Shown: piece by piece, positions 8,005 to 10,990 of the stretch
Numbering within the stretch: the stretch's first letter is position 1
Layout of the letters: every line of letters begins with the position of its first letter
Assembly (NCBI RefSeq): GCF_035285525.1
Contig: NZ_JAYKGW010000230.1
Location: 1-32,000 of the forward strand
Origin: Okeania sp.
GTDB lineage: Bacteria; Cyanobacteriota; Cyanobacteriia; Cyanobacteriales; Microcoleaceae
Length of the DNA stretch: 32,000 nucleotides
Direction of reading: 5' to 3'
The notes under the pieces: generated by a model
Databases searched by the model: none
What the model saw: the letters and a program-made list of their open reading frames with translations, nothing else
Told to the model about the DNA's origin: nothing
Program-made: the position numbers and the translations under genes

Positions 8005-8034
8005 TCCTGATTTATTTCTTTAAGTTTGTATCAG
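8005..8034 (+). promoter_or_regulatory. Predicted promoter of patX-like gene 1: TCCTGA (DIF1-like -35), 18-nt spacer, TATCAG (-10).
   Basis: The same architecture, spacing and distance to the ATG (30 nt from the -10 box) is conserved at 8839..8868 in front of copy 2. TCCTGA differs by one base from the DIF1 hexamer TCCGGA. Confidence 0.45.
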
Positions 8035-8064
8035 AGAGTAGATACTCTTACATGGATACAACCT

Positions 8065-8310
8065 ATGAAAAACAATTATACAACAATCATTTTATCCTTT
8101 TTATTATTACTTGGTAATGCTCCTATTAGCCAAGCCTTAATAACTGAAAATGAACTTGAATCATCTACAGCATTTTTCAGAGAATCTGCTCAAAATCGTC
8201 ATTATGGACCAACTCAGCCTCCGCGAGGAAACAGACGAAATTTTGTAGAAAAAAGCTGTAATTCTGGATTAGATCAGGAAATTTTCCCTCATCGTGGTAG
8301 TGGACGATAA
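8065..8310 (+). CDS. patX: PatX-like small protein: hydrophobic N-terminus with C-terminal HRGSGR (RGSGR HetR-inhibitor motif).
   Basis: 81 aa from ATG 8065. The TTG at 8026 used by the track overlaps the predicted -10 box. The N-terminus is MKNNYTTIILSFLLLLGNAPISQA, and the sequence ends ...QEIFPHRGSGR followed by stop. It is paralogous to 8899..9150 and lies upstream of hetR. Confidence 0.75.
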   Translation: MKNNYTTIILSFLLLLGNAPISQALITENELESSTAFFRESAQNRHYGPTQPPRGNRRNFVEKSCNSGLDQEIFPHRGSGR

Positions 8311-8490
8311 AGCTATTTACTACTTTTTAATTTTGAAGAATAAGTAAAAATTTTATCAAAGTTTTTCAAGTTATTAAGTTGATAATATTAGTTCTATCTT
8401 CCATTCATAAATATGATGATAATGTGAAAAATTACCTGATATTTTGGTTTGAATCCTGGCTCTTCAATAGACAACTTATCTTTATGATAT

Positions 8491-8579
8491 TATGTCCGGG
8501 TCAATACTTAATCAATCACGATAAAAGAGCTAGGATATAATAAAAAATGATTTTTTTATTAGTAATTATCCGGACATAA
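8491..8579. other. Hairpin or TIR pair TTATGTCCGG ... CCGGACATAA (69-nt loop). The 3' arm contains TCCGGA (8569..8574).
   Basis: A 10-bp inverted repeat seen directly. Its counterpart in duplication unit 2 carries a compensatory change. Confidence 0.55.
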
Positions 8580-8838
8580 CTTTAAGTATTGGAAAAATTT
8601 ACCAAACCACTCTAAAAAATTAAGACAGGGTGGTAAAAACTCATTGCTTGATGGTGAAAATACCGAAGAATCATCAAGATAAACTTTTAATTTATTTTTT
8701 TGCGATTGAGAATCTAGTTTGTAGATACATTTCAGTCTTAGCTTTACATCTATTTTGCCAATAAATCCATTTTAACACTATACTTATCCTTCACACAGTC
8801 TTCATATTTTGAACTAATAAATAATTCTTCGATAAGTA

Positions 8839-8868
8839 TCCTGATTTGATCCTCAATTTTTGTATTAG
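8839..8868 (+). promoter_or_regulatory. Predicted promoter of patX-like gene 2: TCCTGA, 18-nt spacer, TATTAG.
   Basis: Positional equivalent of 8005..8034, again 30 nt from the -10 box to the ATG. Confidence 0.45.
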
Positions 8869-8898
8869 AGAGTAGATGCTCTTAAATGGATACGACCT

Positions 8899-9150
8899 AT
8901 GAAAAACTATTATACAGCCATCATTTTCTCCTTTTTGTTATTACTTGGTAATGCTCCTATTAGCCAAGCTTTAATGACTGGAAATGAAGTTGAATCATCT
9001 GCAAAATTTTTCAGAGAATCTGCTCAACCCCGTCATGGGGAAGCTACTTATCCCCCAAAAAAAGGAAACAGAACACAATTTGTCAACACAAGCTGTTCTT
9101 TTGGGTTAAATAATCAGGAAATTTTTTCTCATCGTGGTAGTGGACGCTAA
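8899..9150 (+). CDS. patX: PatX-like small protein, second paralog, with C-terminal HRGSGR.
   Basis: 83 aa. The N-terminus is MKNYYTAIIFSFLLLLGNAPISQA, and the sequence ends ...QEIFSHRGSGR followed by stop. It is ~70% identical to copy 1 by hand alignment, and the final Arg codon differs synonymously (CGC vs CGA). Confidence 0.75.
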   Translation: MKNYYTAIIFSFLLLLGNAPISQALMTGNEVESSAKFFRESAQPRHGEATYPPKKGNRTQFVNTSCSFGLNNQEIFSHRGSGR

Positions 9151-9328
9151 AGTTATTTACTACTCTTGAAATTTCCGGAGGAAGTAGAACTTTTATCAAA
9201 GTTTTTGCAGCTCTTAAATTGATAATATTGGTTCTATCTTCCATTTATAAACATATATGATGATCTAGAAAAATACCTCAAATTTTGCTTCAAAGCCTCG
9301 CTCTTCAATAGACAACTTCATCTTTGAT

Positions 9329-9407
9329 ATATCATGTCCAGTTGAATAATTAATGAAAAACAAAAGAAGAGAATATTTTTTTCTTAGTAATTATCCGGAC
9401 ATGATAT
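9329..9407. other. Hairpin or TIR pair ATATCATGTCC ... GGACATGATAT (57-nt loop). TCCGGA lies at 9394..9399.
   Basis: An 11-bp inverted repeat. Relative to 8491..8579, a T-to-C change in the 5' arm is matched by an A-to-G change in the 3' arm. Confidence 0.55.
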
Positions 9408-9457
9408 TAAGTATTTAGAAAATGAGAAAGATATCTCACCACTATCAAAACTTGGTA

Positions 9458-9640
9458 ATATTTTTGGAGCGTTGTTCTAATCCTCATTACACAAAAAACT
9501 TCTGACTTCTGACTTCTGACTTCTGAGTTCTGAATTTTGACTTCATAATTGGGTCACGCCACCCCGTCTTAATCGGCGAAATATTTTTGGATGGTTGTTC
9601 TCATCCTCATCACAAAAACAACTTCTGACTTCTGACTTCG
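9458..9640. repeat. Dispersed repeat family: a partial copy followed by a full copy (GGTCACGCCACCCCGTCTTAATCGGCGAAATATTTTTGGA...ACAAAAA.AACTTCTGACTTCTGA). It includes the heptamer array (CTTCTGA)n at 9499..9540.
   Basis: The full copy (9548..9640) aligns with 18197..18300. The partial copy (9458..9545) lacks the GGTCACGCC head. Confidence 0.7.
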
Positions 9641-10087
9641 TTACATCCAACTTGAGACCAGGATTAGGAAGCAATAAACCCACTCTATACTCCAAATTTG
9701 GGATTATACCATTATGTTATGCTATCATTAAGTATGTCTGTCAGCCAAAAGTACGCAGGGTGCAAAAATCTACTAAGATAACAAATTATACTCACGGTTA
9801 ATCCGTGTACATATTCTCAAACCAAATGTAAAAAAAATCTCAAAAAGATATTTATGTTTAAGATTTACGCATCAATATCTAACTACAAAGAGTTTTATAA
9901 TGAGCTTCACACTGTAGCTAGGGCATAACATATTATTTTGCGTAATTCATGCTCTTGGTTAGAGTAAAACTAAACTTATAGCTGACTGACTTTACTGACA
10001 TTGAAATATCATCATAGTCAGTATCTTTTTAATTGTTAACAGAAGGTGATAAAATGCCTTCCTACTTTTGTTATTTTGGGGATTACA

Positions 10088-10990
10088 ATGAAAACTGATA
10101 CCGATCTGATTAATAGCCTTAGCCAGAGCGCTATGGATCAGATTATGTTATATTTAGCGTTCAGTGCCATGAGGACGAGTGGGCATCGTCATGGAGCTTT
10201 CTTAGATGCAGCTGCCACAGCCGCCAAATGTGCTATATACATGACCTACATAGAGCAAGATAAGAATCTCCGTATGACTGGGCATCTGCATCACATCGAA
10301 CCTAAACGGGTTAAGGTGATTGTGCAGGAAGTAGAAGAAGCACTGACAAAAGGTAAGTTGCTGAAAATGTTGGGTTCTCAAGAACCTCGCTATTTAATTC
10401 AGTTTCCTTATGTATGGTTAGAACAGTATCCTTGGATACCTGGACTTTCCCGACTTCCTAATAACAATCTTTCTATTGATGAAAGACGATACATAGAAAG
10501 TAAACTTCCACCAAATATGCCTGATGCTAAATTGATTAATTCTTTTCAGTTCATGGAGTTAATTGAGTTTTTGCATAGACGTTCTCAAGAAGATTTACCA
10601 GCTAAACGTCGGATGCCTCTGAGTGAAGCTTTGGCAGAACATATTAAACGTCGTTTGATCTATTCTGGTACAGTCACAAAGATAGATTCTCCTTGGGGAA
10701 TGCCTTTTTATGCCCTGACTCGCTCTTCTTATTCTCCAGAGGATCAAGAAGAACGTACTTTTATTATGGTTGAGGATACAGCTCGATATTTTCGCTTAAT
10801 GAAAGATTGGGCTGAACAGAAAAGCACAAATGTAATGCGCATTTTGGAGGAGTTTGATATTTCTCCAGCTCGCTATGAGCAAGCTAAAGATGAGTTAGAT
10901 GAAATCATCAGGCATTGGGCTGATCGCTATCACGAACAAGGCGGAAAACAAATGGTGCTACAAATGGTCTTTGGCCTTAAGGATGATTAA
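10088..10990 (+). CDS. hetR: HetR, master transcriptional regulator of heterocyst/diazocyte-type differentiation.
   Basis: 300 aa from ATG 10088. The sequence is near-identical in long blocks to HetR as I know it from Anabaena ([120 protein letters not shown]). The GTG at 10046 used in the track would add 14 non-HetR residues. Confidence 0.97.

Follow-up and report, generated by a model that had tools for sequence, protein, structure and literature searches.

Introduction

HetR and the peptides that inhibit it form a well-studied activator-inhibitor module of cyanobacteria. Among its described components is PatX (Asl2332) of Anabaena/Nostoc sp. PCC 7120, a precursor that is exported by the Sec pathway and cleaved by the periplasmic peptidase PatP, after which the hexapeptide HRGTGR binds HetR and blocks differentiation; signal cleavage is predicted at residues 24/25 (PMC12756182). 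Two further Anabaena proteins, PatS and HetN, carry the pentapeptide RGSGR, which binds the hood domain of HetR and frees HetR from DNA, PatS being a 17-amino acid (aa) peptide without a signal peptide and with presumed processing in the cytoplasm, and HetN a reductase-like protein. Here we report on two small open reading frames (ORFs), patX-1 and patX-2 (products X1 and X2), which lie upstream of hetR in the first 32,000 nucleotides (nt) of contig NZ_JAYKGW010000230.1 of Okeania sp. (assembly GCF_035285525.1), a stretch hereafter called the window.

The arrangement of such genes next to hetR has been described in Leptolyngbya sp. BL0902, which is filamentous and does not form heterocysts. 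In this strain a single patX lies directly upstream of hetR and in the same orientation (GFS31_32390/32400), the two being apparently co-transcribed from a promoter with TCCTGA, and patX has been deleted there (PMC11298460). Two PatX homologues have also been tabulated for Microcoleus vaginatus, M. asticus and Oscillatoria nigro-viridis, where their arrangement is not discussed (PMC12756182 Table S3).

Judging from its sequence, the window likely holds the hetR locus of an Okeania-like, AT-rich (G+C 33.8%) filamentous cyanobacterium, in which the usual single upstream patX has been duplicated in tandem to give two HetR-inhibitor precursors. To our knowledge, the genus Okeania has not been described as heterocyst-forming. 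An original prediction, made from the letters of the window alone, had proposed two PatX-type genes at this locus, and its claims are taken up below together with the results that bear on them.

Identity of the two small genes

The gene patX-1 occupies 8065..8310 (+ strand; 81 aa and a stop codon) and patX-2 occupies 8899..9150 (+; 83 aa and a stop codon), exactly as predicted, and the identity of about 70% that had been estimated for their products comes to 59 identical residues in 83 alignment columns, i.e., 71%, or 73% of aligned pairs. Both proteins begin with MKN.YT.II.SFLLLLGNAPISQA, a signal-peptide-like region (8065-8136 and 8899-8970, both +) which has MKN as its basic start, then a hydrophobic core of 12 residues (peak 9-residue Kyte-Doolittle hydropathy 3.2-3.3) and S-Q-A ahead of residue 25, such that S and A stand at positions -3 and -1. 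Both end in QEIF(P/S)HRGSGR with the stop codon directly after, HRGSGR being encoded at 8290-8307 (+) in patX-1 and 9130-9147 (+) in patX-2, and the last Arg codon of the motif is CGA in the former and CGC in the latter; the original description of both termini and of this codon thus agrees with the sequence. In the six-frame translation of the window RG[ST]GR is found twice, only in X1 and X2, against 0.035 occurrences expected from shuffles, so the motif is not there by chance. Each protein is 100% identical to a database protein named 'hypothetical protein [Okeania sp.]', both on one 52.6-kb contig, and the protein database holds 16 homologous proteins. Downstream on the same strand, as had been claimed, follows hetR at 10088..10990 (+; 300 aa and a stop codon), with its ATG 937 nt after the stop codon of patX-2, the product of which is unambiguous at 586.8 bits against the NCBIfam HetR equivalog cut-off of 489.

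Papers citing Elhai and Khudyakov (2018) quote the criteria of that study for PatX as a small protein with an RG(S/T)GR pentapeptide, a hydrophobic Sec-type N-terminus, a DIF1-type promoter motif close 5' of the start codon, co-occurrence with hetR and homology to accepted PatX. In both X1 and X2, HRGSGR forms the final six residues, the N-terminus has Sec-type features on a heuristic assessment, TCCTGA lies 55-60 nt before the ATG, and hetR is located downstream on the same strand. Homology was found at the profile level: with HHalign, the profile of the Okeania/Trichodesmium/Dapis clade, X1 and X2 included, matched a Microcoleus-type PatX profile with a probability of 98% (E = 1.9e-13). Six members of the latter profile, tested against the NCBIfam equivalog model NF047413 (heterocyst_PatX; cut-off 30 bits for the whole protein), scored 23-35 bits, passing or just short. 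The same model is the only NCBIfam family that matches X1 and X2, in an alignment over their full length, and is passed at 32-35 bits by the syntenic orthologues in Microcoleus, Lyngbya and Capilliphycus, with 21.6 bits for the ORF of Okeania hirsuta; no Pfam family matches X1 or X2. On the combined evidence of motif, signal-peptide-like N-terminus, DIF1-like promoter, synteny and profile link, X1 and X2 are divergent PatX-type precursors, as the original prediction held.

They resemble Anabaena PatX in that all are precursors of 77-83 aa with a Sec-type N-terminus and a predicted 24/25 cleavage, an H-R-G-(S/T)-G-R warhead, a DIF1-type (sigma-HetZ) promoter close upstream and co-occurrence with hetR. 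X1 and X2 are, however, very divergent from it (11-14 bits against the model cut-off of 30), their motif is RGSGR rather than RGTGR and stands at the very end of the protein, with a decayed copy at the ancestral internal position, and in the window patX adjoins hetR and is duplicated. With PatS and HetN they share the RGSGR pentapeptide and are not homologous to either.

Promoters and transcripts

A sigma-HetZ (DIF1-type) promoter is predicted upstream of each gene, at 8005..8030 (+) for patX-1 (TCCTGA 8005-8010, a 16-nt spacer and TGTA 8027-8030) and at 8839..8864 (+) for patX-2 (TCCTGA 8839-8844, a 16-nt spacer and TGTA 8861-8864). Transcription would accordingly start near 8039, giving patX-1 a leader of ~26 nt, and near 8873 for patX-2. 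These positions lie downstream of an alternative TTG start at 8026, so the ATG codons should be the real starts. The abstract of the Elhai and Khudyakov study reportedly places a DIF1-type motif within 69 nt of the patX start codon. The sigma-HetZ consensus is TCCGGA-N16-17-TGNA-N7-9-T, in which G-32 is replaceable (PMC13342950); TCCTGA of patX-1 and patX-2 departs from TCCGGA at this one replaceable position and therefore fits the consensus. Among the patX upstream sequences compared, TCCTGA-N16-(T/C)GTA about 60 nt before the ATG is kept in 30 of 30, both window copies included, and TCCTGA upstream of patX of Leptolyngbya BL0902 has been annotated as a DIF1-like promoter (PMC11298460 Fig S1).

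There is no support for a hairpin conserved in the 5' leader of patX: RNAalifold returned only a 5-pair stem of -1.84 kcal/mol that shows little covariation apart from G-U wobble changes, and two of the five pairs change on both sides, each in a single sequence. An apparent compensatory change in the inner palindrome of this leader was likewise discarded, as the bases do not pair on a hand check. No intrinsic terminators were found between patX-1, patX-2 and hetR, the sole + strand match being a hairpin with a T-rich tail at 10042-10071 (+), 17 nt before the hetR ATG, and such sites are not above chance regionally.

Age of the duplication and selection on the two copies

The repeat unit of ~835 nt comprises roughly 7800-8600 and 8630-9425, with a non-coding identity of 76-82%, and in the duplicated unit (~830 nt) the gene is preceded by ~250 nt and followed by ~290 nt of flanking DNA. 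By neighbour joining, X1 and X2 group as sisters (bootstrap 0.94), and they share an extra residue at position 4, ISQA, RES and EIF as derived features; the pair at locus L009 stems from a separate duplication event (bootstrap 0.81). Synonymous divergence (dS) between X1 and X2 is 0.28, compared with 0.47-0.50 for hetR between the window and its nearest relatives, the single-copy loci L001 and L002. An older duplication followed by loss of the second copy in these relatives was rejected, as no remnant of a second patX was found in L001 or L002. On these comparisons the X1/X2 duplication is lineage-specific.

The original prediction had also suspected that recency explains most of the similarity between the copies, and this is borne out by the non-coding flanks, which differ at 21% of sites, close to the 23% of synonymous sites. 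Beyond this, the ratio of non-synonymous to synonymous change (dN/dS) between X1 and X2 is 0.24 in the signal peptide and 0.12 in the last 11 residues, compared with 1.01 in the middle of the protein, and non-synonymous change at both ends affects 4 of 82 sites against the 21% flank mismatch (Fisher p = 2e-4). Purifying selection acts on the two ends and leaves the middle free to evolve, in keeping with what had been proposed; a dN/dS of about 1 across the whole ORF, termini included, had been named as an outcome that would speak against the proposal, and the ends gave about 0.2. Both coding indels are multiples of three, and both ORFs and both promoters are intact. Taken together, the sequences indicate that both patX copies are probably functional.

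patX and hetR in related genomes

Loci with hetR were taken from 79 species-representative genomes, and the 67 with at least 2.5 kb of upstream DNA, mostly from Microcoleaceae, were compared. A co-oriented PatX-like ORF lies upstream of hetR in 65 of these 67 loci, at a median gap of 723 nt, and 23 of the 67 have at least two such ORFs in tandem; three of the 67 (L009, L033 and L042) have two copies that both carry RG[ST]GR. Within the clade of X1 and X2 the pentapeptide RGSGR and the His before it are invariant or nearly so. One earlier claim has to be withdrawn, i.e., that the arrangement had not been characterised. The adjacency of patX and hetR is already published for Leptolyngbya BL0902 (PMC11298460), pairs are tabulated in PMC12756182 Table S3, and tandem PatX-like pairs are common in relatives, so the arrangement is not new in kind.

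The window shares with Leptolyngbya BL0902 the co-oriented upstream patX and the predicted promoter with TCCTGA in place of TCCGGA, and differs from it in having two copies under separate promoters and in the 937 nt between patX-2 and hetR, which hold a miniature inverted-repeat transposable element (MITE) and local repeats. The tandem pairs of Microcoleus and Oscillatoria (22 loci) resemble the window in having two co-oriented PatX-like genes 5' of hetR, each with a TCCTGA promoter. Their duplication, however, is older than, and independent of, that in the window; most of these pairs have a hetR-proximal copy with a scrambled pentapeptide (e.g., RKRIR, KGDGR), whereas both window copies have a perfect C-terminal HRGSGR; and their motif is internal, followed by a tail of ~16 aa.

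The Microcoleus pairs merit a description of their own. In about 20 genomes the proximal paralogue lacks the motif and the distal copy keeps ERGSGR (loci L028-L030, L032, L034, L037, L040, L043-L045, L053, L054, L056-L058, L060, L062, L065, L066, L071, L072 and L075). The proximal ORFs lie ~620-1460 nt upstream of hetR, mostly 620-870 nt, and retain the TCCTGA promoter (TCCCGA in L066 and L075), the signal peptide, AQYMLSAQTQQ and, mostly, a conserved C-terminal tail, typically RRNFTEPTVYTHPLQDF, with RRDTE, RSRRR, RKRIR, KGDGR, RGKGR or RGGGR at the site of the pentapeptide. Single-copy Microcoleus genomes have a patX of the proximal type with an intact motif. That a paralogue without the motif has been conserved suggests that the PatX scaffold has a second role.

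Two loci nearer to the window also stand out. At L013 (Okeania hirsuta PAB10Feb10-1), 3605-3856 is a clear patX ending in ...KCPHRGSGR, 550 nt upstream of hetR, and the survey published in PMC12756182 (Table S3) lists this species without PatX. At L015 (Trichodesmium sp. MAG_R02), only a degenerate patX remnant (5032-5298; 37% identity, no RGSGR) is left 5' of hetR, and a 31-aa ORF, MQNYTPINAIHASGVDNEDLIPLNRHRGSGR, is located at 9061-9156, ~2.2 kb downstream of hetR; this ORF resembles a PatX from which signal peptide and middle have been deleted, and is PatS-like in size.

The position of the motif within PatX has itself shifted. In an alignment anchored on S-A-Q, 'SAQ + 10 residues + RGSGRR.F' of Microcoleus corresponds to 'SAQ + 10 + RGNRRNF' in X1, and the same ancestral site reads KKGNRTQF in X2, RGRRRSF in L001 and RGKGRRF in Capilliphycus; in the window the relic is encoded at 8224-8238 (+; RGNRR) in patX-1 and 9061-9075 (+; KGNRT) in patX-2. 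A decayed relic ten residues after S-A-Q is present in PatX of Okeania, Dapis, Trichodesmium, Lyngbya and Capilliphycus (L001, L002, L024, L038, L063 and L073), and in these proteins the intact RGSGR stands 20-30 residues beyond the relic, at or near the C-terminus. Apparently the warhead was copied within the protein and its first copy was lost afterwards.

On its own the window matters little, adding one more divergent, unannotated patX pair to a familiar module. It does illustrate that patX genes of Okeania, Trichodesmium and Dapis fall below the curated model, and that small divergent patX genes are missed by counts based on annotation or on models. It also belongs to a wider pattern in which the hetR locus repeatedly duplicates patX with outcomes that differ by lineage, and the natural one-copy, two-copy and motif-less variants could be used for studies of HetR and PatX in cyanobacteria without heterocysts.

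HetR and the proposed mechanism

In Anabaena HetR the RGSGR peptide contacts E253, E254, D256, D270 and D278, and the C-terminal carboxylate of the peptide adjoins R223 (PMC4649674). The HetR of the window keeps all six of these residues. No HetR recognition site (GAGGGG-N5-CCCCTC, up to three mismatches) was found near the locus.

The unit duplicated in tandem would comprise promoter, coding sequence and downstream MITE, ~830 nt in all. By analogy with Anabaena PatX, each precursor would be transcribed by the HetR-dependent sigma factor HetZ, exported by Sec and cut outside the cytoplasm, a step carried out by PatP in Anabaena, to free HRGSGR; the hexapeptide would then re-enter cells and dock on the hood domain of HetR, upon which HetR would leave DNA. 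Since the motif is the extreme C-terminus of X1 and X2, a single cleavage in front of His would release the hexapeptide with its carboxylate free. If the analogy holds, the duplication most likely raises the dose of the same inhibitor or makes that dose more robust, and a new function is less likely.

Weighing the alternatives

Several findings tell against two functional precursors of a HetR inhibitor. In the profile search that had been proposed as a check, the family assignment stood, given the sole NCBIfam match and the profile link, and the individual scores did not: X1 reaches 13.8 bits (E = 0.073) and X2 11.0 bits (E = 0.56) against NF047413, below its cut-off, which means that they do not qualify under a model built on heterocyst-formers and are divergent relatives. 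Their signal peptide is a heuristic call, based on composition and on agreement with the 24/25 cleavage predicted for Anabaena PatX. The whole-gene dN/dS of 0.64 is not significantly different from flank divergence (p = 0.17), and neutrality of one copy since the duplication is only marginally rejected (p = 0.058). In non-heterocystous Leptolyngbya BL0902, effects of patX on the transcriptome seemed largely independent of hetR (PMC11298460). Finally, patP, hetZ and patU are not in the 32 kb window.

The two statistical results in this series would be expected if a single copy were functional and the other a young, intact duplicate drifting to loss, its likeness a matter of recency. A flank identity of ~79%, near the coding identity of 82%, fits this explanation as well, as does the finding that a single motif-bearing copy suffices in most related genomes and that the second copy of Microcoleus has lost RGSGR. 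We nevertheless regard it as unlikely: a drifting duplicate does not readily account for two intact ORFs, two coding indels that are both in frame and two promoters that both keep TCCTGA-N16-TGTA, and parsimony against outgroups assigns at most 2-3 derived changes per copy to the signal peptide and C-terminal block.

The Leptolyngbya result raises a different explanation, i.e., that X1 and X2 are PatX homologues which act independently of HetR, e.g., in filament fragmentation, necridia formation or another signalling pathway. The transcriptome of the double mutant of that strain is like that of the patX mutant and not that of the hetR mutant (PMC11298460), and the many Microcoleus that keep a promoter-bearing PatX paralogue without RGSGR show that the scaffold may serve otherwise. 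Three observations make such a role quite improbable for the window genes: the near invariance of RGSGR and its preceding His in the clade, combined with the retention of all peptide-contact residues of HetR; an adjacency to hetR that is kept in 65 of 67 loci; and an Arthrospira PatX orthologue which, as cited in PMC7761841, blocks heterocysts when expressed in Anabaena.

A bolder version of the duplicated-inhibitor reading would have patX at the hetR locus as a recurrent target of tandem duplication, with the window copies kept as distinct pro-peptides of a two-input HetR inhibitor system in an organism without heterocysts. At least three independent duplication events were seen (the window lineage, L009 and the Microcoleus group). 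The warhead would have moved to the C-terminus before the duplication, and the copies, which differ in the residue before His (Pro vs Ser) and in the middle, could through these differences be processed differently or at different times. We consider this extension speculative and rather improbable; were it true, the motif-less Microcoleus paralogues would represent another outcome of the same process, e.g., decoys for the processing peptidase. The idea that X1 and X2 are open frames that arose by chance in repeated, AT-rich non-coding DNA might draw on the sparse coding content of the window and its many spurious short ORFs, the lack of a Pfam match and the lack of an NCBIfam match above cut-off. 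It has virtually no credibility left and is already refuted by the conservation data, i.e., two RG[ST]GR motifs where 0.035 are expected, 16 database homologues, orthologous ORFs that share both ends in 65 of 67 relatives and the low dN/dS of these ends.

Mobile elements and other features

Three copies of a dispersed element accompany the patX genes. MITE1 is degenerate and represented by its right end, 7597..7639 (+), with the first TAATTATCCGGACA box and TCCGGA at 7625, the remainder reaching back to ~7520; its core, TTTTTTTATCA.TAATTATCCGGACA, matches the right terminal inverted repeat of the dispersed element. MITE2, 8487..8582 (+), has the left end ATATTATGTCCGG and the right end TAATTATCCGGACAT, with TCCGGA at 8569, and lies in repeat unit 1, 3' of patX-1. 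MITE3, 9329..9407 (+; 79 nt), has both ends nearly intact, ATATCATGTCCAG ... TCCGGACATGATAT, with TCCGGA at 9394. Perfect copies of TAATTATCCGGACA at 7619, 8563 and 9388 are the only three in the window. MITE2 and MITE3 share a derived TTAGTAA, which implies that the element was already 3' of patX when the unit duplicated.

The element occurs in at least 120 metagenome contigs, and the matches listed (loci L080-L159 included) hold 98 two-ended copies of 82-332 nt (median 136), with ends ATATCATGTCCGG ... CCGGACATGATAT at which conservation stops abruptly. It therefore has the properties of a MITE, being short and non-coding with terminal inverted repeats and many dispersed copies, and the second and third window copies are two-ended. 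Its flanks are A/T-rich, reading TA...AA in 51 and TT...TA in 37 of the copies among the matches listed, with no clean target-site duplication definable. The ends of this miniature inverted-repeat family can be written ATATCATGTCCGGTTGAATAGTTATAAATAA ... TTTTTTTATCACTAATTATCCGGACATGATAT, with a variable, purine-rich interior. Each MITE end of this kind brings a perfect TCCGGA hexamer, which can be mistaken for, or perhaps acts as, a DIF1 -35 element. The boxes at 7625, 8569 and 9394 were considered as DIF1 promoters, with a possible rewiring of hetR by the third, and were rejected in this role, as they are right MITE ends; by eye, the spacing downstream of the boxes is also a poor fit to TGNA.

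Between MITE3 and the conserved region upstream of hetR, the stretch ~9325-9712 has no counterpart in single-copy relatives. It contains a direct repeat, 9457-9516 and 9580-9639 (123-nt spacing, 90% identical), which ends in runs of the heptamer TTCTGAC. The region that follows, 9713..10087 (+), has 75-79% DNA identity (blastn) to the single-copy relatives L001, L002 and L006-L008 and is presumed to be the regulatory region and leader of hetR.

Further downstream in the window, a cobalamin riboswitch (Rfam RF00174, 50.3 bits) was found at 24210-24385 (+), directly 5' of a HupE/UreJ gene (24414..25094) that is followed by a DUF1636 gene and a gene for a CobW-family GTPase. This is likely a B12-regulated cluster for uptake and chaperoning of a metal (cobalt).

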